Of a DNA stretch of 64,000 nt, positions 1 through 52,980 are shown in pieces (positions within the stretch are counted from its first letter, which is position 1; the number at the start of each line of letters is the position of its first letter). The DNA comes from a virus, in IMG/VR virus record IMGVR_UViG_3300021964_000015; one strand, 5' to 3'. The position numbers and the translations under genes are program-made. The notes under the pieces are model-generated. The model was not told where the DNA came from, did no database searches, and saw only the letters and a program-made list of their open reading frames with translations.

Positions 1-743
1 TTAGCTGAGAATTGAGCGCCATATTCAACGTTAAATTTATCTGGATCACGCTGGCGTTCTAGATCAAGGAATTCACGAGAGATGGTTGGGTTCATCTCCC
101 ATGTTGGGAGGTTTACTGCTTGAAGGTGAGGAAATCTTCCTGATGCTGCTTCTTTGAAATGTTGATAGAAGAGTCCATCAGTTAGCCATGGTGAGGATAG
201 TTCAAGGATTTTGCCATCTTTACCGAACTGTGCAACTGCTGGCGAGAGTGCTTGATAAATGCCATTAGCGCCCGAGTTTGCATCTCCATCAACGGCAAAT
301 GCGAGTTCGTCAAACACGCAAGCGCAACATGCAAGACCACGAGCGGCCCTACCAGAAGTGGGAATTGCTTTGAATACACAACCATTGCTCATTTCTAATT
401 GATCTGCAGTTTCGCGGGCGATTTCTTGCGCGAAAGGGCTATCAAGGATGAGCTGACGGATGTTATTAAGGGCAATACGGCTTTGGTCTTGACTATTGGC
501 AACGGTAAGGACGTACCACTTTTCTCCTTTTCTTACTTTCGCTTTGTATTTATCTTCTAAAACAAAGCAAATGTAAACGCAGGCTACTGCGGCCATCAAC
601 GTTTTACCGCTGCGTCGTCCAAGTGCCCATGTTGCTTGTGAATAGCCTCCTGCGAAAAAGCTATCAAGAATTTCGGACTGTTTTGGATAGAGTTCAAGAC
701 GCAGAGCGTGCTTAGCGAAATCAGAGCAAGAAAGCCTGGTCAT
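1..743 (-). CDS. terL: Terminase large subunit, N-terminal ATPase part (runs off window edge)
   Basis: Translated by hand from ATG 743 (absent from ORF track): MTRLSCSDFAKHALRLELYPKQSEIL...ALGRRSGKT (Walker A)...CVFDE (Walker B)...LSSPW; open to position 1. Confidence 0.9.
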   Translation of the reverse strand, partial: MTRLSCSDFAKHALRLELYPKQSEILDSFFAGGYSQATWALGRRSGKTLMAAVACVYICFVLEDKYKAKVRKGEKWYVLTVANSQDQSRIALNNIRQLILDSPFAQEIARETADQLEMSNGCVFKAIPTSGRAARGLACCACVFDELAFAVDGDANSGANGIYQALSPAVAQFGKDGKILELSSPWLTDGLFYQHFKEAASGRFPHLQAVNLPTWEMNPTISREFLDLERQRDPDKFNVEYGAQFSA

Positions 744-804
744 CACTTATTTCCCAAGGTTTCATAACCTTCACAATGTTGATGCACAGTTGTTCATCAA
801 CTTT

Positions 805-810
805 TAGAAT
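805..810 (+). promoter_or_regulatory. Putative sigma70-type -10 box (TAGAAT) for the portal operon
   Basis: 24 nt upstream of ATG 835; the same TAnnnT spacing recurs before other left-arm genes. Confidence 0.45.
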
Positions 811-834
811 AGTCACATCTGTAAGATTTTAAGC

Positions 835-2715
835 ATGGCAGACATTACAAGCAGCGAGGATTTGGTGCAATTGGGCCACAATTCTGGATATGGAATGCGT
901 GCTGATGGTCTTCAGAATGTATTTACTGGCATGGGCACTAGTCGTGATAAAACGACTAGGACCACAGTTAAGCCAGTCACATTTATGGGGCATGAAGACC
1001 TTGAAGGTCTTTATGCGCATTGGTTGATGCGGCGCATTGTTGATCTAGTTGCAGATGAATGCACGCGAGAAGGATTTGAGATTTTATTTGGTGGTGAAGG
1101 CGTGAATGCAGAAACGCTTTCTGGCGTGGAGCAATCAATTGAAGATTTAGGCATTTTGCCCGCCTTTAATGAGGCGGCCAAAACATCACGACTTTATGGC
1201 GGCAGCGCACTTCTTTTGTACATCGATGATGGTCGTCCGTCTGATATGCCAGTGGACAAAAATAACATTCGTGCCGTTGAGGGCATGGAATGTTTGGACC
1301 GGCATCAAATTGCGCCAATCATTAGTGAAGATAGCCTCTATGACTATTCCAAGGCCACATATTATCAAATCATTTCAGGCGATTTAATTCAGCAGCCTAA
1401 TTTACGCGCCATTCATAAGGATAGGATTTTGCGTTTTGATGGCATTTGGTTGCCTTATCGCACCCGTCAGAAAAACTATGGATGGGGGATGAGTGTATTA
1501 CAAAGCGTGTATGAGAGCTTTAAGCATTACTACAGTGGCACTTCCTCCATTGCCACCCTTCTTACTGAATTTGACATTTTTGTGCACAAAGTGAGGGGCT
1601 TGGCTTCAATGCTTGCTGCTGGCAAGGAAAGTCAAGTGCGGGATAGGCTGCAGCTTAATGATATGAGCAAGAGCATTTATCGCGGCTATGCAATTGATGC
1701 GGAAAAAGAAGAGCTTGCTTTTGTTAGTCGTCAATTTGGTGGTGTTTCTGAAATCCTTGAAAAGCTAAGGATTGATATTATTGCTGCTTCTGGCATTCCA
1801 CACACATTGTTATTTGGCCAATCACCTTCTGGACTTGGTGCCACTGGTCGTAGTGAAGAACGTGATTTTGCAAAAGTTTGCCACCATTATCAGGAGACAA
1901 ATTTCCGGAAGCCATTGATGAAGCTGATGGAATACATCATGCTGAGCAAAAATGGCCCAACAAATGGTCGAATGCCAGACAATTGGCGAGTGAGCTTTAA
2001 GCCATTGTTTGAAATGAACGAAAGAGAGCTTGCTGACGTGAGAGCACGAGTGGCAGCAGTTGATGCTCGTTACATTCAAGTGGGAGTGCTTACGCCACAA
2101 GAAGTTGCTGATTCGCGGTTTGGAAAGAGCGAATACAGTATTGAGACCACCATTGATCCAAGTATTAAGCGGGAAATACCTGCAAAGGATGGTGGGAGCA
2201 GCGGCAAGATGGCAGTGCCTCCTGGTGGTCGTGATCCTTTGGATCAGGCAAATGGAAGCCTTCCAATGGATGGATCGCGTGATGCATCGCCTGACGCTTC
2301 GACGATGGATGAGGCTGGTTTGTATTTATCGAGAGATCTTGAAGCGGAACGCGGGGATGTTGAATTTAAAGACAAAGAGCTGCACAAAAAGGCAATTGCT
2401 GCAGCAAAGGCCAAGTTTAAGACTTGGCCTAGTGCAGTGGCTGGTGCTTATGTAACGCGAAAGTACAAAGAATTGTATAAGCGTAAGCATGGTTCATTGT
2501 CTGGTGCTTTCAAGGGTAAGAAGACCACTGCAGAGTATTTCAAGAAAGATGCCATCACTCCATTGAAGACTGAGGGCACCATTCTTGGTGGTATTGACGA
2601 AGCCGCGTTGATTTCCGAAGAGGACATCAATGCAGCATTGAATCAATGGAAACAGGAAGCTCCTGACAGGTTTAAGGACATCTTGGAGGCGGGTGATGTT
2701 GAGTCCGCTGAGTGA
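835..2715 (+). CDS. Phage portal protein (DUF1073/HI1409 type) with C-terminal extension
   Basis: Motifs RRIVDLVADECTREG, SRLYGGSALL, IHKDRILRFDG, GWGMSVLQ, AASGIPHTLLFGQSPSGLGATG; first gene of the head block. Confidence 0.88.
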   Translation: MADITSSEDLVQLGHNSGYGMRADGLQNVFTGMGTSRDKTTRTTVKPVTFMGHEDLEGLYAHWLMRRIVDLVADECTREGFEILFGGEGVNAETLSGVEQSIEDLGILPAFNEAAKTSRLYGGSALLLYIDDGRPSDMPVDKNNIRAVEGMECLDRHQIAPIISEDSLYDYSKATYYQIISGDLIQQPNLRAIHKDRILRFDGIWLPYRTRQKNYGWGMSVLQSVYESFKHYYSGTSSIATLLTEFDIFVHKVRGLASMLAAGKESQVRDRLQLNDMSKSIYRGYAIDAEKEELAFVSRQFGGVSEILEKLRIDIIAASGIPHTLLFGQSPSGLGATGRSEERDFAKVCHHYQETNFRKPLMKLMEYIMLSKNGPTNGRMPDNWRVSFKPLFEMNERELADVRARVAAVDARYIQVGVLTPQEVADSRFGKSEYSIETTIDPSIKREIPAKDGGSSGKMAVPPGGRDPLDQANGSLPMDGSRDASPDASTMDEAGLYLSRDLEAERGDVEFKDKELHKKAIAAAKAKFKTWPSAVAGAYVTRKYKELYKRKHGSLSGAFKGKKTTAEYFKKDAITPLKTEGTILGGIDEAALISEEDINAALNQWKQEAPDRFKDILEAGDVESAE

Positions 2716-3358
2716 TAGTTGGCCGCGTTTCGATGCGGAATGGTCTTATGACGCAAATTTAGGGCGCTATCGGCGCCCTTCTGGTCAATTCATGAGCGAA
2801 AAGGCCGTCATGGCTTTGATTGATGGTCGTATTGACAAGCTGGGACAAGATTTGCGTCGCTTTACAGAAATGATGATTGATGGCAATATCACCATTGATC
2901 AATGGCAAGGTAGCGTTCGTGAAGCAATTAAAGCTGCACACATTCAAACAACAATTCTTGGTCATGGCGGAAGGGAAAGCATGGGAAGTGCGGAATATGG
3001 CCGCATTGGTCAAAGGCTTCGTGCGGAATATCGTTATCTACAGAATTTTGCTGGCGACATTTTGGCTGGCCGCGTTTCTGCTGCCATGGCTCTTGCTCGC
3101 GTGCAGCTATATGCTGAAAGTGTGCGAAGTTCTTACTGGGAAGGTGCCAGTAATCGTCAAGCCCAGCAAGGCTACTCTTTAATGCGTAGGATTTTGGATC
3201 CACAGGCTGCGCATTGTGATGATTGCGTGCGTTATGCAAGAGCAGGATTGGTGCCATTAGGAAGTTTGCCAATGCCTGGTCAGCGTTGTGAATGCAAAGC
3301 TAGGTGCAAATGTTCTGTGCAGTACAAAAGAAACGCTGTACCGAGTAGTCCTGTGTAG
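2693..3358 (+). CDS. Minor head / head morphogenesis protein (Mu gpF/SPP1 gp7-like)
   Basis: Follows portal; C-terminal HCDDC...PMPG..CEC..RCKC cysteine motif. Confidence 0.7.
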   Translation: MMLSPLSDSWPRFDAEWSYDANLGRYRRPSGQFMSEKAVMALIDGRIDKLGQDLRRFTEMMIDGNITIDQWQGSVREAIKAAHIQTTILGHGGRESMGSAEYGRIGQRLRAEYRYLQNFAGDILAGRVSAAMALARVQLYAESVRSSYWEGASNRQAQQGYSLMRRILDPQAAHCDDCVRYARAGLVPLGSLPMPGQRCECKARCKCSVQYKRNAVPSSPV

Positions 3359-3395
3359 AAATGACGTCTAACATCATGCAAGACTTCATGGTGTT

Positions 3396-4592
3396 ATGGC
3401 AAAGATTTTGTATCACGGCGACGCAGCGGTGCAGACGGGATTTGGGCGAGTTGCTGAAAACCTGCTTCCCGAGCTAGCAAAGGAGCATGAAATTGTTGTA
3501 TGTGGAATCAATTGGTGGGGAGATCCCCATGATCTCCCTTATCGCATGTATCCAGCACATGCTGGTGGTTCCGATCCATTTGGTTCGCATCGTTTGCAGG
3601 AGCTTCTTGTGAAAGAGCGCCCTGATTTGGTGTTTGCCGTGAATGATATTTGGATTTTGAACAAGCTTTGGCGTGTGGCTAAGCCATTGAAAGAAAAGCT
3701 TGGCTTTAAGTGGTATGGATATTTTCCCACTGATAGCTATGGCTTTTTCCCAGAAGTGTTCAATGAATGCAAGGAATGGGATGGCATGGCTACTTACACT
3801 AATTTTGGTTTAGAGGAAGTGCGCAAAGCGGGGTGTGAAATGCCTTGTGACGTAATTCCTCATGGCATTAATCATTCGACATTCTTCCCGGTGAAGAAGG
3901 AAGAGGCACGTAAAGCACTTGGCCTTCCCGAAGATGCATTTTTTGTATTTAATGGCAACCGAAATCAACCACGTAAACGAATTGATTTGACCATCAAGGC
4001 ATTTATTAAGTTTGCTCTTGACAAGCCAGAGGCTCGACTGTGGTTGAATATGGGAGCAAAGGATCAAGGGTGGGATTTGATTCCCTTGTTTAAGCGTTTT
4101 TCTCGTGACTTTGGTTACGAGCCTACAGGCAAGTTGGTTTTAACCAGCAAGGATTTTGACGTGACAAACTGTCTTCCCATTGACAAACTAAATCTTGTTT
4201 ATAACGCTTGTGATATTGGCGTGAACACTTGCATTGGTGAAGGTTGGGGCCTTGTAAATTTTGAACACGCTGCAACTGGCGTGGCGCAAATTGTACCGGA
4301 CCACACATCGCTTAAGGAGATCTTCAATGAAATTCCTCGCATTCCCATTGAAAGCTGGGAGGTTGATTGCAATTATGGCCTTGACCGTGGCGTTCCTTCT
4401 GTCGATGGAATGGTGCAAATTCTTAATCACTACTACGAAAATCGCGAAGACCTTGAGAAAGTAGGCAAGTGGTGCTATTCTGCTTTGCAGCAGGAGAAGT
4501 ATCAATGGGAGAAGATTGGCGAGTCCGTGAGGACTATTGTCAACAACGTGCTGAAAGAAAGCACTGCTGGCAAGGGATTTGGTGATGCCTAA
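3396..4592 (+). CDS. Glycosyltransferase, GT-B fold (GT4-like)
   Basis: TGFGRV N-terminal motif, NRNQPRKRID, and EX7E motif EGWGLVNFE. Confidence 0.88.
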   Translation: MAKILYHGDAAVQTGFGRVAENLLPELAKEHEIVVCGINWWGDPHDLPYRMYPAHAGGSDPFGSHRLQELLVKERPDLVFAVNDIWILNKLWRVAKPLKEKLGFKWYGYFPTDSYGFFPEVFNECKEWDGMATYTNFGLEEVRKAGCEMPCDVIPHGINHSTFFPVKKEEARKALGLPEDAFFVFNGNRNQPRKRIDLTIKAFIKFALDKPEARLWLNMGAKDQGWDLIPLFKRFSRDFGYEPTGKLVLTSKDFDVTNCLPIDKLNLVYNACDIGVNTCIGEGWGLVNFEHAATGVAQIVPDHTSLKEIFNEIPRIPIESWEVDCNYGLDRGVPSVDGMVQILNHYYENREDLEKVGKWCYSALQQEKYQWEKIGESVRTIVNNVLKESTAGKGFGDA

Positions 4593-5271
4593 GCGCAAAA
4601 TTAGAGTGGGAATTCCCACTCTTTCTTGTTATGACAAGCTTATTTATTTGTGCGATCATTTGTTGAATGATGAGCACCCCCGCTTAGAGGCGGAGGTGCT
4701 CATTTTGGACAATGGCGGGCGAATGCAAAATAGCGGAGCTATAAATGAGCTTGCGGAACTTTGCGATACGGAGAAATGGAAGGTTGCAGTGCCTCCGTAT
4801 AACTTAGGCGTTGCAAAATCTTGGAACTATCTTATTAATCAGTTGAATCAATGCATCATTTCCAATGATGACGTGGTGTTTGGACTGAATGACATTGAAA
4901 TGTTCTTGGAGGCGGCAGATGCAAATCCCGGCTCTATCCTTTTGGAGACGAATCATCCAGTTGGAGGTTTTTCTACTTTCTACGTGAATCGCCCAGAGCT
5001 TTGGCTGTCAATGGGAGGGTTTGATGAATTATTTGCGCCTGCTTATTTTGAGGACAACGATTGCCGTTGGCGCTTGCTTGTTGAGAATAATCCGGCAGTA
5101 AAAGTTAATCTTCCCTCATGGAGTCACGACAATTCAAGTACTTTACATCGCGGAGATGATCATTACAAGCGCATGCATTGGTGCTGCTTTGAAAGGAACA
5201 AAGCTTATTACCAAGTGAAATGGGGCGGACTGCCTGGCAAGGAACAATTTACAACAGCATTTAACAAGTGA
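4585..5271 (+). CDS. Glycosyltransferase, GT-A fold (GT2-like)
   Basis: ILDNG, NLGVAKSWN, SNDDV (DxD-like), GGFDELFAPAYFEDND; overlaps the GT4 stop. Confidence 0.85.
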   Translation: MPKRKIRVGIPTLSCYDKLIYLCDHLLNDEHPRLEAEVLILDNGGRMQNSGAINELAELCDTEKWKVAVPPYNLGVAKSWNYLINQLNQCIISNDDVVFGLNDIEMFLEAADANPGSILLETNHPVGGFSTFYVNRPELWLSMGGFDELFAPAYFEDNDCRWRLLVENNPAVKVNLPSWSHDNSSTLHRGDDHYKRMHWCCFERNKAYYQVKWGGLPGKEQFTTAFNK

Positions 5272-5273
5272 TC

Positions 5274-5816
5274 ATGGCTCATTACGAACAGCAGCAATTC
5301 ATGGGAGCAATGCGTTACTCCCTTCCATCGTTCTTTATTGGCGGAAGGATTGTTGAAATTGGCAGCCTTGACATCAATGGAAGCGTTAGGCGCTTTTTTG
5401 AAAAGCCAAAAGAATACATTGGCATTGATGTGGGCGCTGGTCCTGGTGTTGACGTGGTGTGTGAAGGGCAGAATTACGATGGCGCCACCAGTAGTTTTGA
5501 TGTGGCGGTTTCAGCGGAATGCTTTGAGCACAATCCGTATTGGAAAGAAACCTTCTCGAACATGGTGCGAATGGTTCGAGATGAGGGGCTTGTGCTTATG
5601 ACTTGCGCAACAACTGGACGCCCGGAACACGGCACGACAAGGAGTCATGCTGGAAGTAGCCCTTTAACAGTGGCGAAAGGATGGGAATACTATCAGAATT
5701 TGACAGAGGAAGATTTTGAAGATACTTTTGATTTGGAAAACATGTTTTCGGAATATTGTTTTAATGTGAATAAGAATAGTCATGATCTTTATTTTTGGGG
5801 GATTGTCAAAAAATGA
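5274..5816 (+). CDS. Class I SAM-dependent methyltransferase
   Basis: VEIGSLDING (motif I), YIGIDVGAGPGVD, FDVAVSAECFEH. Confidence 0.85.
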   Translation: MAHYEQQQFMGAMRYSLPSFFIGGRIVEIGSLDINGSVRRFFEKPKEYIGIDVGAGPGVDVVCEGQNYDGATSSFDVAVSAECFEHNPYWKETFSNMVRMVRDEGLVLMTCATTGRPEHGTTRSHAGSSPLTVAKGWEYYQNLTEEDFEDTFDLENMFSEYCFNVNKNSHDLYFWGIVKK

Positions 5817-6109
5817 CTGCCAAGCAACGCCAGTCCAAGATGCGTAAGGTGATGAAAGAGTTTGCTGCGGGCACCCTTAAAAGCAGCTCTGGTGAAGTGG
5901 TGAAAAACCGCAAGCAAGCACTTGCCATTGCATTAAGCGAAGCTGGTATGAGCAAGGGTGACAAGAGCGACGCTTATTGGGACGCTTACATTGATACGAT
6001 GTGTGGCTCTATGAGCAAGGAAAACGCAGAAGAGGAGATGGATGAAAGTGCTGGTGAAAAGCGCTGCAAAGGCTACTTGGCTGCGGTTAAGAAAAACAAG
6101 AAAAAATAG
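5813..6109 (+). CDS. DUF6496-like small basic protein
   Basis: KVMKEFAAGTLKSSSGEVVKNRKQALAIALSEAG; ATGA/stop overlap with the methyltransferase. Confidence 0.7.
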   Translation: MTAKQRQSKMRKVMKEFAAGTLKSSSGEVVKNRKQALAIALSEAGMSKGDKSDAYWDAYIDTMCGSMSKENAEEEMDESAGEKRCKGYLAAVKKNKKK

Positions 6110-6164
6110 GATCTTGGATTGTTTCCATAGGCAATTGTGCGTTTAAGATGCACAAAAAGCGAAG

Positions 6165-6488
6165 TTGCCAGTGGACAACATCAGAGTGGTCAGGGAAGAA
6201 GAGGATGGCATTAATGTGATGGAGGCGTTGCAGATTTTGTCTCGCAACGCTCATCGCAACACTTCTAGGTGGGAACTTGTTGAGAAGCAAGTGTTTAAAA
6301 ATGGGCGATTAGAGGAAACGCATGAATATGTGGTGAGTGAATATGACACGCCTGATCCACAATTTGAGCCTGGCAAGTTTTTAATTTTTGAAGCTGTTGC
6401 AATGGCAAAGGCTTACATCATGGAAGGCATTGAAGAGCAACTTGCTGCCATTCGTGGTGAGGATGATGATGACGATGATGAGGACTAG
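6165..6488 (+). CDS. Hypothetical acidic protein
   Basis: Fills the gap, poly-Asp tail; start may be GTG 6171. Confidence 0.6.
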   Translation: MPVDNIRVVREEEDGINVMEALQILSRNAHRNTSRWELVEKQVFKNGRLEETHEYVVSEYDTPDPQFEPGKFLIFEAVAMAKAYIMEGIEEQLAAIRGEDDDDDDED

Positions 6489-6767
6489 TTAGTCGTTTGT
6501 TGCATGAACAACAAACGACGGATAGCCCATAAGCCATAAAACGCTTAAGCCAAAAACGCCACTCATCACTTTGATTTGAGCAACATCTGGCGCGAGGATG
6601 CCATTTTCAATGCGGGAAATGGTTGCTTGGTCGCAGAATAATAATTCCGAGAGAGATTGCTGAGACAGTCCGCAGTTAAGGCGAGCGTCCCGCACTCGGG
6701 AACCTATGAGCATTTTGGCTTCAGCGAGTGAAGATTTGGGACTTTTTACCTTTCTGGAACCGAGCAT
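6489..6767 (-). CDS. XRE/Cro-family helix-turn-helix regulator
   Basis: IGSRVRDARLNCGLSQQSLSELLFCDQATISRIENG. Confidence 0.85.
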   Translation of the reverse strand: MLGSRKVKSPKSSLAEAKMLIGSRVRDARLNCGLSQQSLSELLFCDQATISRIENGILAPDVAQIKVMSGVFGLSVLWLMGYPSFVVHATND

Positions 6768-6835
6768 TTTGCGTTTTTATGCAGACTAGCATATTAACTA
6801 CTATACTTTATAAATAAAGCCTTTACAGTATATGT

Positions 6836-8032
6836 ATGAGCACCACATCCTGCCGCTACGATTTTTCTCCCATTGAGAAATATGAAGTGACACCTGAAGG
6901 TTATCTTCGGGTGTGGGCTTCAATCGCTCGTACTGGTATTCAGCATTACACTGATGCTGATGGTTCTATCAGGAAGGAATACCGTCCTGAAACAGAAGTG
7001 GCGTCTCCGGAAAGCCTTGCCTCTTTTGCGGGGAAGGCAATCACTATGGAACATCCTCCTGTTCTTTTGGACAGTGAGAACACCAAAGATTACCAAATTG
7101 GCTTCACTGGTTCAGAAATTGTTTATGACAATGGCTTTGTTAAAGCTGTCATGACAGTTACTGATCGTGAAACCATTGAAAAGGTGACCAAAGGCGATGT
7201 TCGAGAAGTGAGCGCTGGCTACAGGGTTAATTATGATCCGACGCCAGGCGTTACCGATAGTGGCGAGCATTACGACGGCATCCAAAAGGAGATCAGTGGT
7301 AATCACGTTGCTATCGTTCGTCGTGGCCGTGCTGGCCCGCAGGTAAGGTTGCACTTGGATCGCCAAGATGCTGCTGACCCGTCTTTATTTTCTATTAAGG
7401 AAACCAAAACTATGAGCGCAAAAGTCGTTTTTGACGGCGCCGAGTTTGAGGTGAGTGAGAGCGTTGCTCTGGCGATCACCAAAGAACGCGAAGACGCCAA
7501 AATGTCCTACGAGGACATGAAAAAGAAGTACGACGAGCTGCAAGCTGCTGCTGATGCAATGAAGTCCGAAATGGATGACATGCATAAGGAGATGAAGTGC
7601 AAGAAAGATGCGGCTGATGGTCGCGCTGATGCACTGACTGAGCAAGTCGATTCCTTGAAGGCCGAACTGGAAGAAGCCAAGCAAATCAACGTTGATTCCA
7701 TCGTTGAAGAGCGTCTGGCTCTGATTTCCAAGGCTAAGCCTGTTCTTGATGCTGCCTATGAATTTGGCGGCAAAACTGCCCGTGAAGTGATGGTTGATGC
7801 CATCAAGGCTGTACGTGGCGATTCTGTTGCTTTGGACGAGCGTTCCGACGATTACGTTCTGGCAATGTTTGACACCATCTCTGAAGATGCTGCAAACCGC
7901 GCAGATTCGACTGAAGATCTGCGTAAAGCAGTGGCTTCCATTGCTACGCCTGCTTCTGCTCCTTCTTCTTACATTGAGAAGCTGCAGAATGCCTGGAAAT
8001 CCCCTCTCTCTGTCTCTAAGGAGGCTAAGTAA
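6836..8032 (+). CDS. DUF2213 prohead protease/scaffold
   Basis: TPEGYL, IARTGIQ.Y, ITMEHP, EVSAGY, NHVAIVRRGRAGP; coiled-coil acidic C-terminal half. Confidence 0.85.
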   Translation: MSTTSCRYDFSPIEKYEVTPEGYLRVWASIARTGIQHYTDADGSIRKEYRPETEVASPESLASFAGKAITMEHPPVLLDSENTKDYQIGFTGSEIVYDNGFVKAVMTVTDRETIEKVTKGDVREVSAGYRVNYDPTPGVTDSGEHYDGIQKEISGNHVAIVRRGRAGPQVRLHLDRQDAADPSLFSIKETKTMSAKVVFDGAEFEVSESVALAITKEREDAKMSYEDMKKKYDELQAAADAMKSEMDDMHKEMKCKKDAADGRADALTEQVDSLKAELEEAKQINVDSIVEERLALISKAKPVLDAAYEFGGKTAREVMVDAIKAVRGDSVALDERSDDYVLAMFDTISEDAANRADSTEDLRKAVASIATPASAPSSYIEKLQNAWKSPLSVSKEAK

Positions 8033-8035
8033 TCC

Positions 8036-8605
8036 ATGGCTGTTACCTTTACCACCAGCGCAGGTTCTGCAGGTGGCGTTCAGTCCAGCTATCCGCTGGA
8101 ACTGACTGCTGCACTGGAAGGCCAATTCGCTGACATTTCGGACAACAATGTTGCCACTTTCGTAAATGAAACTGGCGCCACTATTGCTTTTGGTGATCTG
8201 CTTGTTGTGAATGGTGCTGGCACCGTTGGCAACTCCGCCAAAACCATTGCTGCCACTGGCGACACCGTTGTGGGTGTGAATGCTCTCACCTACATCGAAG
8301 AGACTGTTCTTGATGCGAACAGCCGTCCCGGTGCTTCTAATGAGCAAGCTCTTAATGTGCTCAACAAAGGCGTGGTTGCTGTGTATGTGACCGGCGCTGT
8401 TGATTACACTTCGCCCGTTCGCGTGTACTACGTGACCAACACTGGCGCCACTGCTGGCGCACATCCTGGCCGCTTCTCGCATGCTTTTGTGAGCGGCAAG
8501 ACTCGCCGTCTTAGCGGCGCACGCTGGGTTTCCAAGACCACTGGTGCTGGCGTTGCTCTGCTGGAGCTGAACGGCCCTGATTTCACCCTCACCGCTGATT
8601 CCTGA
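8036..8605 (+). CDS. Capsid cement/decoration protein
   Basis: Between scaffold and major capsid genes; G/A/T/V-rich, strongly biased codons. Confidence 0.7.
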   Translation: MAVTFTTSAGSAGGVQSSYPLELTAALEGQFADISDNNVATFVNETGATIAFGDLLVVNGAGTVGNSAKTIAATGDTVVGVNALTYIEETVLDANSRPGASNEQALNVLNKGVVAVYVTGAVDYTSPVRVYYVTNTGATAGAHPGRFSHAFVSGKTRRLSGARWVSKTTGAGVALLELNGPDFTLTADS

Positions 8606-8617
8606 TAGGAGGACATA

Positions 8618-9532
8618 ATGAGCGAATTCCGTATGGACGAGGCTGGGCTGTTCCTTGAGCGCCAGCTTGAATACATCCGTCCCCAAGTATTTGAAGTCGA
8701 ATATGCCGACATCAAATATGCAACTATTCTGCCTGTGACTAGCGAAGCTGGTCCTGGTGCACAAACTTTCACCTATCGCATTATGGATGCGACTGGTGAC
8801 TTTAAGCTCATTTCTGACGCTGCTGATGATCTGCCGCGTGCTGATGTGAGCCAAACCGAGAAGAGCATCAACATTCGTTCTTTCGGTGGTTCGTTTGGTT
8901 ACACGGTGCAAGAGCTTCGTGCAGCACAAATGGCCAATGTGGCTCTTGAGCAACGTCGTGCTGCTGCAGTGCGTCGTGCTTATGAGGAGAAAGTGGAAGA
9001 AATCGCCATGTTTGGTGAGTCTTCTGTTGGCCTCGTGGGCTTCTTTAACAACCCCACTGTTGACGTTGTGTCGGCTGATAAGTGGTTCACTGGCGCTACC
9101 GCCACTGGCACCACTGCACAAGACATGCTGGATCTGCTGAATGAGGGCGTGACTGCCATCATCAATGGCTCCAACATGAAGGAGCAGCCTGATACCATCC
9201 TGATGGCATGGGAAGATTACAACCGCATTTCTATCACTCGTAATTCCGACTCTTCGGACATGACGGTGATGGAATACTTCCTGCGCACCAATCCATTCAT
9301 CCGTAATATTGAGCCCATCAATGAGCTTGATTCGGACAAGAGCAGCCTGAGCAAGAACCGTATGGTCATCTATCGTCGTGACCCCGGTAAGGTGCAACTG
9401 CACATTCCTCAGCCTCTGGAGCTGTTCCCGCCTCAACAGCGTGGTCTGGAATTCATCGTTCCTGCTCATGCTCGTGTGGGTGGCGTTTCTCTGTACTATC
9501 CGAAGAGCGTCATTTACATTCAGGCTCCTTGA
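8618..9532 (+). CDS. Major capsid protein (DUF2184, HK97 fold)
   Basis: FLERQLEYI.PQVFEVEY, GYTVQELRAA, GFFNNP, PQQRGLEFIVP..ARVGGV..YYP; strong SD AGGAGG upstream. Confidence 0.88.
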   Translation: MSEFRMDEAGLFLERQLEYIRPQVFEVEYADIKYATILPVTSEAGPGAQTFTYRIMDATGDFKLISDAADDLPRADVSQTEKSINIRSFGGSFGYTVQELRAAQMANVALEQRRAAAVRRAYEEKVEEIAMFGESSVGLVGFFNNPTVDVVSADKWFTGATATGTTAQDMLDLLNEGVTAIINGSNMKEQPDTILMAWEDYNRISITRNSDSSDMTVMEYFLRTNPFIRNIEPINELDSDKSSLSKNRMVIYRRDPGKVQLHIPQPLELFPPQQRGLEFIVPAHARVGGVSLYYPKSVIYIQAP

Positions 9533-9599
9533 TAAGCCATTTATTGGCTTTTAAAAAAAGGACGGTTAGGCTAAGCAGCAGTTCTTTAGAACATCGCAA

Positions 9600-9986
9600 A
9601 TGTTTATCGCCTACCGTCCTGAACTTGAGAATCCGCCGCGAGAAGCCAGTTTTGGGGTGATTACGAAGCTTGGCGTGATCAACCTTGCTCCTGGTTTAAA
9701 CCAGGAAATTCCTGATGATCAATGGGAGGAAGCAAAAACGAACCCTACTGTTCAATCGCTTCTTCGCATTGGGGCAATTGAAGAAATGAAAGAACCAGTA
9801 CAAGTGGAAACTATTCCCAAGTCTGCTGAAAATCTTTCTCAACTTCCATTGACTCAAGCCATCCAGGCCATTGAACTTCTTCACGATGAGGAGAAACTCC
9901 GAGATTGGAAGAAGATTGAAGGTCGAGTGAGGGTGCGTAATGCAATCAATCGTCGTCTTGAAGCAATTCGCACAGGAAAAGCATGA
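9600..9986 (+). CDS. Hypothetical head-associated protein
   Basis: ORF between capsid and adaptor genes; ATGA coupling to the next gene. Confidence 0.6.
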   Translation: MFIAYRPELENPPREASFGVITKLGVINLAPGLNQEIPDDQWEEAKTNPTVQSLLRIGAIEEMKEPVQVETIPKSAENLSQLPLTQAIQAIELLHDEEKLRDWKKIEGRVRVRNAINRRLEAIRTGKA

Positions 9987-10297
9987 CAGTCACCTATTCT
10001 GGCTTTTTAGAGCGCTTCCCTGAATTCAGTCCCCATCCATCGGGAATTGTGAACGGCGCCATTGAAAGTGCTACAGCTGATGTTTCGTCTGACATCTTTG
10101 GTGATCAAACTGACAGAGCTGTTCGTTTTCTTGCTGCTCACATTATTGCCATTCAACTTGCACAAATGGGCGTCATGATTGGCGCAACAGATGGCAAGGC
10201 ATATGGCAAAGGCTTAGATGCCACGTTGTATGGACAAGAATTTAAGCGTCTCACTGAAACTGCCTCAAATGCTTCAATTATTGGCTTTGTCGTTTAA
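9983..10297 (+). CDS. Head-tail adaptor (DUF4054-like)
   Basis: FLERFPEF...LAAH...TLYGQEF pattern. Confidence 0.75.
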   Translation: MTVTYSGFLERFPEFSPHPSGIVNGAIESATADVSSDIFGDQTDRAVRFLAAHIIAIQLAQMGVMIGATDGKAYGKGLDATLYGQEFKRLTETASNASIIGFVV

Positions 10298-10686
10298 TGA
10301 CTAATCCTGCTCCGCCATTAGCTAATACCACTCTTGTATTTGCAGTGGCAAGCGGATATGCTGTTGATTCAGCCACGGGTAATTACGTTGAAATCACTGA
10401 TGATGTAACGTATTACGCGACATTGAAGCAAGTTAGAGACACTCGTTACGAACAGCGGATTGGGGCTGATGAAACTGCCATCTACATGAAAGGCAGATTA
10501 GTTAGCCCTCTAGCATTTTCGGGAGTGCCCCCTGGCAGTGTGGCTAAAGCCATCATTGAAAATCAGGAGGGGCGTTTTGAATTACTCCCTACGACCGAAA
10601 TGACTGACCATTACCGTCAGTTTTTGGGCACACCCATCCACGGCTACTTTAGAGTTGTGGGAGTAGGAAGTGTCCTTAATCGTTAA
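10297..10686 (+). CDS. Putative head closure protein
   Basis: Synteny and size; TAATG coupling. Confidence 0.5.
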   Translation: MTNPAPPLANTTLVFAVASGYAVDSATGNYVEITDDVTYYATLKQVRDTRYEQRIGADETAIYMKGRLVSPLAFSGVPPGSVAKAIIENQEGRFELLPTTEMTDHYRQFLGTPIHGYFRVVGVGSVLNR

Positions 10687-10709
10687 TTACGCTCCTTCGC
10701 ATTGTTTCA

Positions 10710-11288
10710 ATGGCTATTCAACATCCCACTCAGATTATTAAGAGTCAGGACACCATTGTTTATGTTGGTGCCCTGTCTGGCGCCACTCGTCCTGCAATTA
10801 CGCCTGCTGTGGCTGGTGCATTCTCTCGCCCCACTTCCGGCGTGCCTGCCAACATGTACTTCCTTGGTGGCGTTACCAACGCTTCCGTGTCGTTCAATGA
10901 TGGTGAGCAGGAATACTACCTGCTGGGCAATGGCGGCTTCGCTGACAGCGTGAAAGTGACTCAGCGTTGCCAGGCTTCCATCACTTCCTACTTCCAGAAA
11001 GACCTGGATGGCAGTGCTATTGATGACACCGCATTTGACGAGGCAATGGACCTTGTGTTGCGTGGTCGCACTGAAAAAGATTTTGAGCTGTATGTGGAGA
11101 TCTTCAAGTTTCTTGGCGGTCAAACCTACGATCTCACTTGCTTTGCTGGCACGGTGATGAACTACAGCGAAAGCTATCCTGCCGACAATCTGGTAGAGAC
11201 CACTTTTGATCTTATGAGCCGAGGTACTTATGGCGTGGGTCGCTGCACTATTTCTGGTGGCATTCTGCCTACTGAGCCTAATTCCTGA
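10710..11288 (+). CDS. Major tail tube protein
   Basis: 192 aa, biased codons, tube-like C-terminus (VMNYSESYPADNLVETTFDLMSRG); followed by a terminator. Confidence 0.7.
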   Translation: MAIQHPTQIIKSQDTIVYVGALSGATRPAITPAVAGAFSRPTSGVPANMYFLGGVTNASVSFNDGEQEYYLLGNGGFADSVKVTQRCQASITSYFQKDLDGSAIDDTAFDEAMDLVLRGRTEKDFELYVEIFKFLGGQTYDLTCFAGTVMNYSESYPADNLVETTFDLMSRGTYGVGRCTISGGILPTEPNS

Positions 11289-11310
11289 TTTATAGACAGA
11301 TAGATCGCCA

Positions 11311-11334
11311 AGCCCCCCAAAAGGGGGCTATTTT
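11311..11334 (+). terminator. Intrinsic terminator
   Basis: AGCCCCC-CAAAA-GGGGGCT followed by ATTTT. Confidence 0.7.
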
Positions 11335-11361
11335 AATGAAAGGTATAGCCATGCGGAAAGA

Positions 11362-11769
11362 GTGAACATCCTTGAATTTCGCGACACGATTTCCAAGCTT
11401 CTCGCGGATTTGCTTGGTGTTTACACATTGCCCAATAATGCGACAGTGCCTGCATTATGGGTGGATGGAAGGAGTGGAGTGCCAAAAGGATGGAAGGTGC
11501 AAGGACTTGAGGCATCAATTAAGCAGTATCCTTCAAGGGCAAGTAGGCCATTGATGGGAATGGTGGAAATGCGCAAGTCATGGGAGCTTGTGCTTTCGCA
11601 GTATGATCCAGCTAGTGAAGATATGGACGAGGCGATTGATCGCATTTTGCGGCATTTTCCTGATGCAACGTTACAAGGGTTTCCTTCTAGTGATAGAGAA
11701 TATCAGTATGCACGATTTATTGTGCCTGATTTGGAAATTGCCACTCAATACATGATTAGGGAAAGATAG
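11362..11769 (+). CDS. Putative tail terminator/completion protein
   Basis: Synteny and size only. Confidence 0.45.
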   Translation: MNILEFRDTISKLLADLLGVYTLPNNATVPALWVDGRSGVPKGWKVQGLEASIKQYPSRASRPLMGMVEMRKSWELVLSQYDPASEDMDEAIDRILRHFPDATLQGFPSSDREYQYARFIVPDLEIATQYMIRER

Positions 11770-29937: not shown

Positions 29938-32790
29938 ATGGCTCAAACACGGTTGATTTCAGAGCTTGTTGAGCTTATCACTCCTAATAATGAAGATGTA
30001 TTTGTAATTGTTGATAACACTACAAATCCGTCGTTAGGCGTGACGAAAAAGATTTCGTATGCCTCGCTAAAAGAAGATTTACAAGACGTTGTTGCTACGC
30101 TCACGTCTGGCGGTACTGGCATCAATGCATCGTATAACGATTTAAATAATACGCTTACCATTTCAGTGGTTGATGATACAACCACTCAACGCACCATTGT
30201 TTCTTCTGGTGGCGGTGAAATTGGCACGCGCAAAGAAATTAATTTTATTGCAGGCACTGCTACCACTGTTAGCGGTGTTGATAATAGTGGAGAGAATCGC
30301 GTTGACGTGACGATTGGCGTTGATGCTTCTCAGATTAGCATTAACGATTTATCGTCCGCCTCTCCTCTTGAAGTGACGAAAGGGGGCACTGGTGGAAGCA
30401 CGGCAAGTGCTGCTCGTGGCAATTTAGGCGCAGCAAAGGCAGGAAGCAATAGCGACATCACTGCATTGACTGGTCTCACCACTGCGCTTTCTATCAACCA
30501 GGGTGGCACAGGCGCAGACACCGCTCAACAGGCATTGAAAGGCATTGGTGGCCTGAAATATATTACTGACGTAGGTGTTGGCGGCGAAAGCCTTGTCGTT
30601 AATGACACGGTGGAAGTAGCCAATGAATTCCGTGGTGAAATTAAAGGAATTAAGGCTGGTAATAGCACGATTAGCGTAACAACTGATGGCACTGATATTG
30701 CCGTCACTGCGAATCCCGACGATATTCTTGGTGGCGCCACTCAGAATGTCAGCCTCAATAATTATCGTCTTACTGACGTTGCATCGCCAGTTGGTGCCAC
30801 TGACGCTGCGAACCGTGCATATGTTGATCAAGTTAGCGCTGGTTTAAGTATTAAAGAAGCGGTGGTTGCAGCCACCACTACAAATATTGCATCCACGTAT
30901 GTGGGAAGCCCTGCCTTTACGCTCACTGTAACTGGCACTGGCGTTCCTTCTCTTGATGGCGTAAACATTACCAGCATTGGCACTAGGGTGCTGGTTAAGG
31001 ATCAAACCACTGCGACGCAAAATGGCATTTATGAGCTGACAACTGCAGCTGGCACTGGCGTTAGCGCAGTCTTCACCCGTGCTGATGACGCTAATAGCAG
31101 CGCAGAGGTGAAGGCTGGCATTTTCATGTTTGTGCAAAATGGCACGACAAATGGCAACCTTCAATTTACGCAAGTCACAAACGCGCCTGTTCTTGACACC
31201 GATCCGCTTGTCTTCTCTGTTTTAAACGACGCAACAATTGCAGATAATTCTGTCACTAATTTAAAGCTGTCTGACATGACAGCTTTGACAATCAAGGGGG
31301 CAGTCTCTAGTGGCAATCCGCAAGATTTGACACCCAATCAAGTGTTGGGCATTCTCAATAGCGGCACCACTAAACTTACTTCCAACGTTTTATTTTCTGG
31401 AACCACTGCAGCGGCTGGTATTGTTCAGCTTTATAACAATGTTGATGGCACGAGCAGTGGCTTGGCGGCCACTGCTAATGCCGTCAAGACTGCTTATGAC
31501 TTAGCTGCTGGTGCCATTCCTATTAGTGGAGGCACTTTTACTGGTCACGTTTCTGGCACCACTGCACCAGTTGGAACCAATACCACTCAACTGGCAACTA
31601 CTGCATTTGTTAATAGTGAAATTGCAAATGATGCCCCCACTAAAACTGGTGGTGGAGCAACAGGCACTTGGGGTATTTCCATTAGCGGAAATGCTGGCAC
31701 CGCCTCTGCATTGGCATCTGGCGTAAGCATTGGCTTAGCGGGTGATTTAAGTGGTAGTGCTGTTTTTAATGGCAACAGCAATATTACCATTACTGGCGTT
31801 GTTGCAGATGATTCTCATAACCATGTTATTAGCAATGTTGACGGGTTGCAAACTGCTTTAGATGCAAAGGCGCCGCTTGTTAATGCTGCATTGTCTGGCA
31901 CCCCAACTGCACCCACTGCAAGCGCTGGCACTGCAACCACTCAAATTGCAACTACTGCCTTTGTAGGAAATGCGGTTAATACATTAGCCAGCGGAACTGT
32001 AGCGTTTGCAGACGCCTTAAGTTCTGGAGTAACCATTGCACTGGGTGGAGACGTAAGTGGCTCTGTTGTTTTTGATGGAAGCCAAAATGTTACTTTGACG
32101 GGTGTTATTGCCAATAACTCTGTCACCCTGGGAACCGACACCACTGGTAATTACGTTGCAAGTGCTGCAACAGCTGGTAGTGGTATTTCCGGAAGCGTCG
32201 ACACTGAAGGTGGTGTCTTCACCGTCACTTCCAACGCTACTCCTGCAAGTATTAGTGGCACAATCGTTTCTCGTGATGCTAGTGGTAGCTTTGCAGCAAA
32301 TGTCATCACTGCTTCTTTGTCCGGCAATGCATCTACTGCCAACACTTGGGCAAGTGGAAGGACCATCACTTTAAGTGGCGATGTGTCTGGAAGTGTTTCC
32401 ATTGACGGAAGCAGTGATGTTACTCTCAATGGTACGGTAAGCAGCAACATAGCTCGCCTCGCAAATGCACAAACATTTAGCGCACAGCAAACCTTTGTTG
32501 AGACTTCCGATACTGTATATGCTCTCACTGGTACAGACTTAGACCCAGCAAATGGTGGTATTCAAACAAAAACATTATCTGGAAGCACTACTTTTACAGA
32601 ATCCTTGGAAAGTGGCCAAAGTGTGCTGTTAATGCTGGAAAGCGGCGCCACTTATACAGTGACTTGGCCAACGGTATCTTGGGTGTCGAATATCGGTAAC
32701 ATTGCACCCACCTTAACGAATAAGGATGCTATTGTTTTCTGGCAAGTTGGCGCCACTGTTTACGGCAACTACCTTGGGAGCTATGTGTAA
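29938..32790 (+). CDS. Long tail fibre protein
   Basis: GGTG repeats, DAANRAYVD, RVLVKDQT..TQNGIY, ATANAVKTAYD, TTQLATTAFV fibre motifs. Confidence 0.8.
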   Translation: MAQTRLISELVELITPNNEDVFVIVDNTTNPSLGVTKKISYASLKEDLQDVVATLTSGGTGINASYNDLNNTLTISVVDDTTTQRTIVSSGGGEIGTRKEINFIAGTATTVSGVDNSGENRVDVTIGVDASQISINDLSSASPLEVTKGGTGGSTASAARGNLGAAKAGSNSDITALTGLTTALSINQGGTGADTAQQALKGIGGLKYITDVGVGGESLVVNDTVEVANEFRGEIKGIKAGNSTISVTTDGTDIAVTANPDDILGGATQNVSLNNYRLTDVASPVGATDAANRAYVDQVSAGLSIKEAVVAATTTNIASTYVGSPAFTLTVTGTGVPSLDGVNITSIGTRVLVKDQTTATQNGIYELTTAAGTGVSAVFTRADDANSSAEVKAGIFMFVQNGTTNGNLQFTQVTNAPVLDTDPLVFSVLNDATIADNSVTNLKLSDMTALTIKGAVSSGNPQDLTPNQVLGILNSGTTKLTSNVLFSGTTAAAGIVQLYNNVDGTSSGLAATANAVKTAYDLAAGAIPISGGTFTGHVSGTTAPVGTNTTQLATTAFVNSEIANDAPTKTGGGATGTWGISISGNAGTASALASGVSIGLAGDLSGSAVFNGNSNITITGVVADDSHNHVISNVDGLQTALDAKAPLVNAALSGTPTAPTASAGTATTQIATTAFVGNAVNTLASGTVAFADALSSGVTIALGGDVSGSVVFDGSQNVTLTGVIANNSVTLGTDTTGNYVASAATAGSGISGSVDTEGGVFTVTSNATPASISGTIVSRDASGSFAANVITASLSGNASTANTWASGRTITLSGDVSGSVSIDGSSDVTLNGTVSSNIARLANAQTFSAQQTFVETSDTVYALTGTDLDPANGGIQTKTLSGSTTFTESLESGQSVLLMLESGATYTVTWPTVSWVSNIGNIAPTLTNKDAIVFWQVGATVYGNYLGSYV

Positions 32791-34169
32791 TGTTTACTAA
32801 ATTTTTACTTGGCAATACCGAGGAGTCTCAAGCGTGGCTTGCTTTTACTGACTTAAGAGCGGAAGTTGTCGGATTGCCATCTTTTTTTGTTGATAACGAT
32901 GGTTCAATTTATATTTCATTTTCCTACCTTGGCGTTAGCTATTTAGCAAAGCTTAGGTTCAATGGAATCGTTGAATGGGCGCGATTGATTAATCCAGCTG
33001 GTAGCTCTGGCTCTTGTTTATTATCAGTAACAGGGGATAGCAATGGCAATATTTATGCTTGCGGTGGTAACGTAACCGGAAGCGGAAGCAAGGGGTTTTT
33101 AGTTAAAGTTAACAGCGCTGACGGCAGCACTATTTGGGCTAGGGAATTCGACAAGGGCAATGGAAATCCTTGTGTTTTTGGTAGTGTTTTTATTAAATCA
33201 AATGGAGGTATTGCAGCTTTTGAAGTAAGAGCTACTGGCTTTAACGTTAGCACGTCATCAGTAGAAAATGCCTATGTTGTTTACACCGCAAGCGGCACCG
33301 TAAGTCAAGCGGGGGTTTTTACGACATTCAATACTTCCAGTCTTGTTCCTGACGGAGTAGAAGCCAAAAACGTAAACGGAACACCTTTGGCCCTGGCTAT
33401 AACAGGATACAATGGCAAGAATGCTGCATATTTGTACCCGCTAGAATCGTTTAGCCCATTTCCGAGCGGCAACAGTTTTTCTTTCGTCTACCAAAATAGC
33501 CTATGCACTCCGCTCAGTTTTGATTTCGTCCCCGCTCCTTCAAATGCTGTTCCTCAAATATGTTATCTAATAGGCAGGGACACTGCCTTTCCAGGTCTTA
33601 GTGAAAATTTTATAGCCAAAGTTAGCCCTAACGCTGCCAATACTGGAGCAAGTCTTTACTGGCTAAAAAGATTTAACAACACATCCGGATCTGACTTTTC
33701 TGTCAACAGTGTAGCTGCAGATAGCAGTGGCAATGCTTATTGCACCGGAATTATCAGTAACACTGCTATTTTATTAATAAAAATAGACACAAATGGCAAT
33801 GTGGTATGGAAAAATTCTATTGACATTGTTTCAGGAAACCCCTCTAGTTCAGTAAATAGTTTTAACACTATTGTAGGCTTAAAAGTTAGCGGAGATTATC
33901 TTATCGTCAGTTTTTCTGCCGTTTATCAGTTTGTACTTAAAGTACCAACTGACGGCAGTTTAAGGGGCACATACACAAACTTGGCTGGCTACACGTTTGA
34001 ATATGGCAATACAACCTTGGAATCATTTGTCACGCTAGTAAATGAAACCACTAATGTATACACATCCATCCCAACTACCAATAGCTTTTCGTTTTCAACG
34101 CAAAATAGTCTTTCCGCGGCAGGCGGCCTTATTCAAAATAATGCGCCAAGGCGAGGTACGATTGGGTGA
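32790..34169 (+). CDS. Beta-propeller-like receptor-binding/fibre-associated protein
   Basis: Repeated D(S/N).GN(I/A)Y..G...L(V/I)K....G..(I/V)W blades; more AT-rich than neighbours. Confidence 0.6.
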   Translation: MFTKFLLGNTEESQAWLAFTDLRAEVVGLPSFFVDNDGSIYISFSYLGVSYLAKLRFNGIVEWARLINPAGSSGSCLLSVTGDSNGNIYACGGNVTGSGSKGFLVKVNSADGSTIWAREFDKGNGNPCVFGSVFIKSNGGIAAFEVRATGFNVSTSSVENAYVVYTASGTVSQAGVFTTFNTSSLVPDGVEAKNVNGTPLALAITGYNGKNAAYLYPLESFSPFPSGNSFSFVYQNSLCTPLSFDFVPAPSNAVPQICYLIGRDTAFPGLSENFIAKVSPNAANTGASLYWLKRFNNTSGSDFSVNSVAADSSGNAYCTGIISNTAILLIKIDTNGNVVWKNSIDIVSGNPSSSVNSFNTIVGLKVSGDYLIVSFSAVYQFVLKVPTDGSLRGTYTNLAGYTFEYGNTTLESFVTLVNETTNVYTSIPTTNSFSFSTQNSLSAAGGLIQNNAPRRGTIG

Positions 34170-34877: not shown

Positions 34878-35216
34878 ATGATTGAACCAGGAAGGTACGA
34901 TATTACCATTCATCAAGGCGTCACTTTTGAACTGCCCTTGCAATACAAGGACAATGTGGGGCAGCCTGTCAATATGACAAGCTACACCGTTAGTGGCACT
35001 TTATGGGACCGACTTGGCGAAAATAAGCTTGCCAATTTTGCCTCTCCATGGACATCACAAATTAGCGGCATGTTTAAGCTGCGTTTAGAAGCTGCCACTA
35101 CAAGCGGCATCACGGAAGATGGCCAATATGACGTGATGGTAACGCAGCCTGATGGCGACACTTTTTACCTTCTTGAAGGCAATGTTAAATTAAATCCTGG
35201 ACTGTCTTGGCAATGA
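34878..35216 (+). CDS. Fibre adaptor-like protein (paralog of 36121-36456)
   Basis: PGRYDITIHQG.TF...YDV.VT.PDG...Y.LEG. Confidence 0.6.
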   Translation: MIEPGRYDITIHQGVTFELPLQYKDNVGQPVNMTSYTVSGTLWDRLGENKLANFASPWTSQISGMFKLRLEAATTSGITEDGQYDVMVTQPDGDTFYLLEGNVKLNPGLSWQ

Positions 35217-36120: not shown

Positions 36121-36456
36121 GTGATCTATCCTGCCACTTACGACATTGTGGTGTTGCAAAACTCCACTTTTAAGATGAGGCTTAATGCCTCGTCTAGTGG
36201 TTCGCCTATTAATGTGAGCGGCTATGTTTTTGACGCCGATATTTGCTACACGACTGGTGGTATTATTACAAGCTTTTCTTCTGAAGTGATTTCAGCTGCA
36301 AGTGGCATTGTAGATTTTGAGCTAGTGCCAAGTCAAACTGCTGATTTTACAGAAGGTGAGTATAAATATGATTTAAATGCAACTTCTCCCAATGGCGAAC
36401 GTTACTATTGGCTAAAGGGCGCTCTCACTGTTTCTGGCACTTGTTCTAGGAATTGA
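36121..36456 (+). CDS. Fibre adaptor-like protein (paralog of 34878-35216)
   Basis: PATYDIVVLQ.STF...YDL..TSPNG..YYWLKG. Confidence 0.6.
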   Translation: MIYPATYDIVVLQNSTFKMRLNASSSGSPINVSGYVFDADICYTTGGIITSFSSEVISAASGIVDFELVPSQTADFTEGEYKYDLNATSPNGERYYWLKGALTVSGTCSRN

Positions 36457-36458
36457 TT

Positions 36459-52769: not shown

Positions 52770-52980
52770 CTTGAATTGAGAGTTCTTTACTTGCAAGTTC
52801 ACTGTCATTGTTGTTAATCCAGGACAAGATTTGTTGCGCACCTGCGCGATAAGGATGCGAGAAAATCCTGTTCAATGCCACGTCAGATTCTAGTGGAATT
52901 AAATCAAATCGATTCGTTTCACTATTGGCAGTAATGGCATGTGGTGCATCATTCAGCCAACAAGCAATGACGTAACTCAT
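52747..52980 (-). CDS. Hypothetical protein
   Basis: ORF overlapping the polymerase start. Confidence 0.55.
   Translation of the reverse strand: MSYVIACWLNDAPHAITANSETNRFDLIPLESDVALNRIFSHPYRAGAQQILSWINNNDSELASKELSIQDESRFRK

Follow-up and report, generated by a model that had tools for sequence, protein, structure and literature searches.

The window analyzed in this study, a 64,000-nucleotide stretch of viral DNA (IMG/VR record IMGVR_UViG_3300021964_000015), encodes a cassette of three soluble enzymes on the + strand at positions 3396-5816. These include a glycosyltransferase (GT) of the GT-B fold and family GT4, a GT-A enzyme resembling family GT2, and a class I S-adenosylmethionine (SAM) methyltransferase (MT), as assigned from open reading frame (ORF) calls, Pfam, and PHROG. 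Judged from its sequences, the cassette very probably builds a short methylated glycan, and the best reading of its role, held at about even confidence, is that this glycan is attached to virion proteins in the cytoplasm, ahead of lysis. The virus is a relative of the Synechococcus siphophage S-CBS4, whose DNA in this region is 76% identical. In the proposed mechanism, the GT4 would put the first sugar, taken from a host nucleotide diphosphate (NDP)-sugar, on an acceptor, probably a Ser or Thr in a surface protein of the head or tail; the metal-dependent, GT2-like GT-A enzyme would add a second sugar; and the MT would O-methylate the outer sugar, capping the chain. In related phages the GT4 is constant while the enzymes of the later steps are exchanged, which would result in strain-specific glycans. 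It is chiefly the acceptor, along with the donor sugars and the sequence of the reactions, that we infer.

The GT4 matched the Pfam family PF00534 with a score of 29.4 bits, above the cut-off of 26.4, and phrog_2170, annotated as 'glycosyltransferase', at 8.5e-72, while its N-terminal domain matched PF13439 with 20.7 bits, below the cut-off of that family. Residues 5-388 aligned to residues 5-393 of the chlorovirus NY-2A protein B736L (PDB 3oy2/3oy7) over the full length (E 7e-24), and a two-domain GT-B architecture was recognized from this alignment together with the PF00534 match. The EX7E motif was found as EGWGLVNFE at residues 282-290, corresponding to EGFGLCSAE in B736L, and was present by a strict pattern in 13 of 15 relatives. 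The basic R-K-R phosphate-binding residues of B736L were also retained. The protein is predicted to be a retaining, soluble GT-B enzyme. Additionally, GT4-GT25 fusion proteins of about 630 amino acids were identified (P0129, P0132, P0135, P0140, and P0182), which share 60-80% identity with the GT4.

The second glycosyltransferase scored slightly under the cut-off for PF00535 (22.6 against 23.3 bits), and a profile of its homolog alignment matched the glycosyltransferase 6p61 with an E value of 9.5e-06. Residues D44, D97-D98, GGFDE, and E158-D159-x-D161 (YFEDND) were invariant across 18 homologs, among which D97-D98 would constitute the DXD-type acidic motif for binding of metal and NDP. The AF2 model of this protein adopted a GT-A fold (pLDDT 94, pTM 0.90), and its top Foldseek matches were all GT-A enzymes with a probability of 1.0, including WrtF, AvpGT, 6p61, and SpsA. 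The nearest solved structures, such as WrtF and AvpGT, are sugar-to-sugar transferases.

The MT matched PF08241 (Methyltransf_11) with 23.9 bits against a cut-off of 21.2, and phrog_32762 at 7.5e-95. A glycine-rich SAM motif, IVEIGSLDINGS, and an acidic IGIDV are visible in its sequence, while a sequence search of the PDB returned weak generic matches only. The family is large and chiefly viral. Ten long homologs were examined that share 44-55% identity across the whole MT domain: seven were fused to a recognizable glycosyltransferase domain (GT17, GT2, GT-B, or RgpF of rhamnan synthesis), and two more carried a CmcI rhamnosyl O-methyltransferase or an AlgX-like domain. Because the long homologs are fused to glycosyltransferase domains, a sugar is suggested as the substrate, and O-methylation of a sugar appears to be the most likely activity. 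In the same slot of related phages, this MT was replaced by sugar methyltransferases of other families.

Pfam, PHROG, and structure comparison therefore agreed with the enzyme families named in the original prediction, which had been made from the letters of this DNA. Its proposal that the cassette builds a short and possibly methyl-capped glycan was likewise well supported by the intact motifs, the GT-A model, the MT-GT fusions, and the swapping of sugar-enzyme partners among relatives.

The composition of the slot was compared among related IMG/VR contigs, which were found by using the GT2 and the capsid protein as anchors, and of which those with enough sequence were counted. A B736L-like GT4 was located directly after the gp13-like gene in 26 of 26 capsid-anchored loci and in all five loci of a sister clade, with identities of 57-86%. 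The partner genes after it fell into at least seven cassette types. The clade of the window and S-CBS4 has a GT2 and an MT. Other loci combine the GT4 with a GT32-like enzyme, a GT2, an NDP-sugar C-methyltransferase, and a CmcI-like O-methyltransferase; with a GT32-like enzyme, a GT2, a DUF4422 protein, an epimerase/dehydratase, and a DegT aminotransferase; with a GT25, a gene of no assigned family, and a CmcI-like O-methyltransferase; with a GT32-like enzyme, a DUF4422 protein, and a relative of the window MT; or with an FkbM methyltransferase only. In a further type, a xylose-isomerase-like TIM barrel and an FAD oxidoreductase are encoded upstream, followed by the GT4, a GT32-like enzyme, and a DUF4422 protein. 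Methyltransferases of four different families recurred in the slot. A constant GT4 with interchangeable elaborating and capping enzymes would fit a first step that does not vary, on an acceptor that does not vary either, with strain-specific outer sugars added afterward.

The same trio is encoded in S-CBS4 as gp014-gp016, in the same order and place and with 73-86% amino-acid identity, except that an HNH gene is inserted after the methyltransferase. Since these genes were already annotated as a glycosyltransferase, a galactosyl transferase, and a SAM-dependent methyltransferase, the gene content of the trio is not new, while the S-CBS4 record gives it no function. New beyond that annotation are the homology of the GT4 to B736L, the constant GT4 with varied partners, the MT-GT fusions, the inheritance with the virion module, and the parallel to the slot of the mycobacteriophage Corndog. 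HNH homing-endonuclease genes on the opposite strand were also observed at the downstream edge of the slot in some relatives (S-CBS4 gp017, 11244-11759; another locus, 6420-7289), and the window is without one.

The structural module, which spans approximately 1-44 kb and includes the cassette, is common to the window and S-CBS4. In contrast, the replication module of the window, at 44-64 kb on the - strand, has no S-CBS4 counterpart, a case of modular mosaicism. Besides the replication genes listed in Table 1, it contains GP88, DUF5895, and Sipho_Gp157, whereas the module of S-CBS4 encodes a ribonucleotide reductase, a RecA-family ATPase, and a Sak-like protein. Because the structural modules correspond while the replication modules are unrelated, the cassette, by this comparison of sequences, is inherited together with the virion genes and not with those of replication. 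It also lies far from the replication genes, as originally noted. Several tail or fibre genes of the window (32790-34169, 35207-36064, 36453-37835, 39277-39888, and 42127-44001) were without an S-CBS4 counterpart, so that the structural module has diverged at its host-recognition end.

The exchange of replication modules also bears on the possibility that the enzymes glycosylate hydroxymethylated bases of the phage DNA against restriction, as in T-even phages. Pyle and colleagues are said to have described, in 2024, metagenomic viruses that glycosylate hydroxymethylated DNA bases. Genes of nucleotide metabolism are present, namely ThyX in the window and both ThyX and a dCTP deaminase in S-CBS4, and phage enzymes of the GT-A and GT-B folds can glycosylate DNA according to work cited in PMC12619734. 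However, the cassette was kept between the window and S-CBS4 while the replication and nucleotide module was swapped, and the partner genes in relatives encode NDP-sugar tailoring enzymes and sugar methyltransferases, which are typical of glycan assembly. In contrast to T-even-type systems, the scanned ORFs of the 64-kb window, which is part of the genome only, included ThyX, but neither a ThyA-type hydroxymethylase nor another gene of DNA hypermodification. The earlier statement that no base-modification genes are visible held for the hydroxymethylase and needs amending for the thymidylate synthase. Glycosylation of DNA appears to be unlikely on this gene content, and we rate it as highly improbable.

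An acceptor in the virion is suggested by comparison with systems of known or reported function. The cluster O mycobacteriophage Corndog encodes an O-methyltransferase and three glycosyltransferases, gp35-gp38, between its portal and capsid maturation protease (PMC4351075). According to later papers that cite Freeman et al. 2023, the capsid and tail tube are what these enzymes glycosylate. In such accounts, the glycan site of mycobacteriophages is placed at the C-terminal ends of capsid and tail tube subunits, and virion glycosylation alters antibody recognition. As in the window, the O-methyltransferase and glycosyltransferases are phage-encoded, occupy the same slot from portal to protease, and are soluble enzymes that are not virion components. 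In contrast, Corndog infects a host of another phylum and has no GT-B enzyme, and virion glycosylation by the window cassette is a prediction.

Chloroviruses glycosylate their own capsid protein with virus-encoded cytoplasmic enzymes, and methylated sugars occur in their glycans (PMC9614988). The NY-2A protein B736L (A546L in PBCV-1), to which the window GT4 is homologous over the full length including the EX7E motif, is a soluble GT-B enzyme of such a self-glycosylating virus, although that virus is a eukaryotic giant virus. The PBCV-1 protein A064R, with two rhamnosyltransferase domains and a methyltransferase domain, builds and methyl-caps the outer part of the capsid glycan (PMC9614988). 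It resembles the cassette in the logic of two glycosyltransferases followed by a sugar O-methyltransferase. A064R is one fused polypeptide, whereas the window has three genes; fusions between the MT family and glycosyltransferases were found in metagenomic proteins.

The position of the slot within the head module, the universal presence of the GT4 in the capsid lineage, the inheritance with the virion module, and the Corndog parallel all indirectly favor a virion acceptor. As a further indirect line, relatives of the GT4 were found beside structural genes in two other, unrelated phages. In the Microcystis phage Mae-JY09, the gene order is capsid, hypothetical, GT4 relative, hypothetical, NAD-dependent (NDP-sugar) epimerase, hypothetical, and head-tail adaptor. 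In the Tetrasphaera phage TJE1, an NTP-transferase, an epimerase, an FkbM methyltransferase, and a GT4 are encoded directly upstream of the terminase and portal. The capsid protein itself has more distant relatives in enterobacterial and other phages, with about 31-34% identity.

Among the proteins of the window, the cement protein and the major capsid protein may be regarded as candidate acceptors. The one suggestive feature is a variable Thr/Ser/Gly loop in the capsid protein (Table 1), with indels among clades, while the rest of the protein is highly conserved; the variation of the loop also follows phylogeny. Its use as an O-glycosylation site is speculative, as is the candidacy of the Ser and Thr residues in KWFTGATATGTT as glycan sites. 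A Ser-Gly bias had been put forward as a source of acceptor sequons, and such a bias is real in ORFs 23555 and 36453, yet their combined Ser, Thr, and Gly content of 33-39% is ordinary for tail and fibre proteins.

Several observations weigh against a virion target. No acceptor was identified among the virion proteins, and neither the capsid and cement proteins nor the putative tail-tube protein had a Ser/Thr-rich C-terminus, in contrast to the reported mycobacteriophage glycan site. In the cyanophage S-EIVl, the GT4 relative adjoins a primase instead of structural genes. The Corndog enzymes are not orthologous to those of the window, such that the parallel is an analogy only: hhalign gave a weak GT-A motif match to gp37 (probability 44%) and none to gp36 or gp38, and the methyltransferases were without similarity. 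The block that contains the slot, from the gp13-like gene to the protease, also holds an opposite-strand XRE regulator and, in relatives, homing HNH genes, which would be consistent with a landing pad for accessory genes instead of a functional part of the head operon. The original proposal of a glycan on virion proteins is supported indirectly, by the genomic position, conservation, inheritance, and the Corndog parallel, but not by an acceptor or by Ser/Thr-rich C-terminal tails.

The chlorovirus homolog also leaves room for another acceptor, as B736L binds GDP-mannose, its acceptor and role are not known, and the capsid glycans of its virus are without the mannose that it binds (PMC9614988). 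The cassette might accordingly act on a non-virion protein of the phage or host, or yield a small-molecule or glycolipid product of late infection, with which the lack of an acceptor motif in the virion proteins of the window would agree. Such a target is distinctly unlikely, as it would hardly account for a place beside head genes that is conserved across three unrelated phage lineages, and no candidate alternative substrate emerged.

The serious main rival to virion glycosylation is remodelling of the host envelope, in which the soluble enzymes would modify the lipopolysaccharide (LPS) core, the O-antigen, or a lipid-linked surface glycan at the cytoplasmic face. The surface of the infected cell would be changed as a result, for example to block the adsorption of progeny or competitors to cells and debris, or to deter grazers. 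This is the usual reading of phage glycosyltransferases in the cyanophage literature (PMC12801897). The closest cellular relatives of the GT2, at 48-51% identity, were found in Prochlorococcus within a surface-glycan island of sugar or heptose type that includes DegT, NTP-transferase, SIS, PfkB/cytidylyltransferase, and GT41 genes, which also speaks against a virion acceptor. Moreover, LPS and O-antigen pathways typically employ enzymes of the GT4, GT25, and CmcI or FkbM types, and the content of the slot varies in the manner of O-antigen clusters, with similar sets of GT4, GT2, GT25, sugar-tailoring, and methyltransferase genes.

In contrast to these clusters and to the Gtr seroconversion systems of phages, however, the cassette has no membrane component, flippase, bactoprenol-linked step, or link to an integrase or lysogeny. 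The maximum hydropathy over 19 residues was below 1.0 in the GT4, GT2, and MT, indicating no membrane-spanning segment. By protein family, the slot of every relative examined was also free of a flippase, a bactoprenol glycosyltransferase, and an integral-membrane serotype glycosyltransferase, and no variant examined encoded a polymerase, an initiating phosphoglycosyltransferase, or an export function. In addition, the cassette lies in the midst of head genes, not in an early or lysogeny region, and follows the virion module in its inheritance, and the universal presence of the GT4 in the capsid lineage would be unusual for an accessory 'moron' gene. Envelope remodelling is rated as rather unlikely, though ahead of the other alternatives. 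In Prochlorococcus sp. AG-409-B05, a TPR-GT41 protein glycosyltransferase resembling O-GlcNAc transferase (4793-6865, - strand) was observed next to the host GT2 homolog, inside an island of sugar-activation genes (DegT, NTP-transferase, SIS, PfkB/cytidylyltransferase).

Returning to virion glycosylation, the cassette would, by analogy, differ from the known phage systems in combining a Corndog-like genomic logic with other enzymes, another host phylum, a constant enzyme related to that of chloroviruses, and hypervariable partners. A bolder reading, held at somewhat less than even confidence, is that cyanobacterial siphophages of an abundant aquatic lineage bear on their virions strain-specific, methyl-capped glycans ('serotypes') made by a hypervariable island in the head operon. 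In the portions of the literature surveyed, virus-encoded glycosylation of tailed-phage virions has been reported for mycobacteriophages only, and a full-text search on cyanophage capsid glycans returned nothing relevant. If this reading holds, an initiating enzyme would be common to giant algal viruses and these cyanophages, and plankton viruses would widely and convergently glycosylate their virions with enzymes of their own, beyond actinobacteriophages and chloroviruses. Phage particles in marine and lake water would then be covered by variable coats of sugar, which could affect adsorption, particle stickiness, decay, grazing, and host recognition. The fixed slot with its swappable enzymes constitutes a natural comparative series, and the homology of the GT4 offers a route to the function of the long-unexplained B736L. 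Because S-CBS4 is a cultured isolate, the cassette is readily accessible to a direct test.

The features of the locus and of the replication module are listed in Table 1. The likely ATG of the GT2 overlaps the GT4 stop by 8 nt, that of the MT lies 2 nt past the GT2 stop, and the DUF6496 ATG overlaps the MT stop as ATGA. These junctions confirmed the tight packing of the three genes noted earlier, and the cassette is tightly coupled to the adjoining genes of the head module. A -10 box of its own, which had also been claimed, was not supported: a sigma-70 scan of positions 500-10000 gave 11 sites against 12.0 +/- 3.5 in shuffled sequences, with none in the 37-nt gap before 3396, and terminators likewise did not exceed their number in shuffled sequences.

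Table 1. Coordinates of the cassette, its neighbors, and replication genes in the window.
Feature	Position	Strand	Basis or remark
Portal protein, upstream edge of head module	835..2715	+	PF06381 6.5e-66; phrog_146 9e-116; 90% identity to S-CBS4 gp012
gp13-like protein, 221 aa	2693..3358	+	phrog_24776 3e-95; alignment of homologs; AF2 pLDDT 82
GT-B/GT4 glycosyltransferase, B736L-like, 398 aa	3396..4592	+	PF00534; phrog_2170; PDB 3oy2
GT-A/GT2-like glycosyltransferase, 228-230 aa	4585..5271 (ORF opens TTG 4579; likely start ATG 4585)	+	phrog_29879 3e-120; AF2; Foldseek
Class I SAM methyltransferase, 180-182 aa	5274..5816 (ORF opens GTG 5268; likely start ATG 5274)	+	PF08241; phrog_32762
DUF6496 small protein, downstream edge of variable slot	5813..6109	+	PF20106 1.2e-08; flanks cassette in all relatives
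Small protein with poly-Asp C-terminus	6165..6488	+	Kept in relatives; no Pfam/PHROG family
XRE-type helix-turn-helix gene, between cassette block and protease	6489..6767	-	PF01381 8.6e-10; 84% identity to S-CBS4 gp021
Head maturation protease (DUF2213)	6836..8032	+	PF09979 5e-45; phrog_530
Capsid cement/decoration protein	8036..8605	+	PF22758 4.9e-18
Major capsid protein	8618..9532	+	PF09950 8e-59; phrog_264
Variable Thr/Ser/Gly loop of capsid, residues 155-168, KWFTGATATGTTAQ	9080..9121	+	Capsid alignment across cassette types
SSB, replication module	50072-50893	-	
Family A DNA polymerase, replication module	50946-52841	-	
ThyX thymidylate synthase, replication module	54359-55024	-	PF02511

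The cassette was placed by the original prediction between a minor head gene and the protease and capsid genes. The position is correct, while the name 'minor head' for the gp13-like gene was a guess: the protein has no Pfam family, and its model gave no Foldseek match at E <= 0.001 and only generic helical bundles in VIA-align (Z < 8). A conserved, zinc-knuckle-like motif, HCxDC ... PGxRCxCx3CxC, was observed at its C-terminus, behind a four-helix bundle in the model. The S-CBS4 homolog of the XRE gene, gp021, carries the annotation 'transcriptional repressor'. An open frame of 694 codons was also observed at 7385-9469 on the - strand, opposite the genes for the protease, cement, and capsid proteins, and is likewise open in S-CBS4 (64% identity). 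Codon bias probably accounts for it as a shadow frame, and it is unlikely to be a gene.

RNA data were considered as contigs of at least 90% likeness, which are not a measure of transcript ends or levels. Small RNA-library contigs covered the region of the portal, gp13-like, and DUF6496 genes, with none across 3188-5491; this gap is uninformative on expression because of the likeness threshold and because the cassette differs more from strain to strain than the capsid genes do. RNA contigs near-identical to the window, from four seawater metatranscriptome runs, began at approximately 6836-7074, at the start of the protease, and spanned approximately 6836-11285, from the protease to the putative tail tube. 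In one run, a single contig of 3.8 kb reached position 11285.

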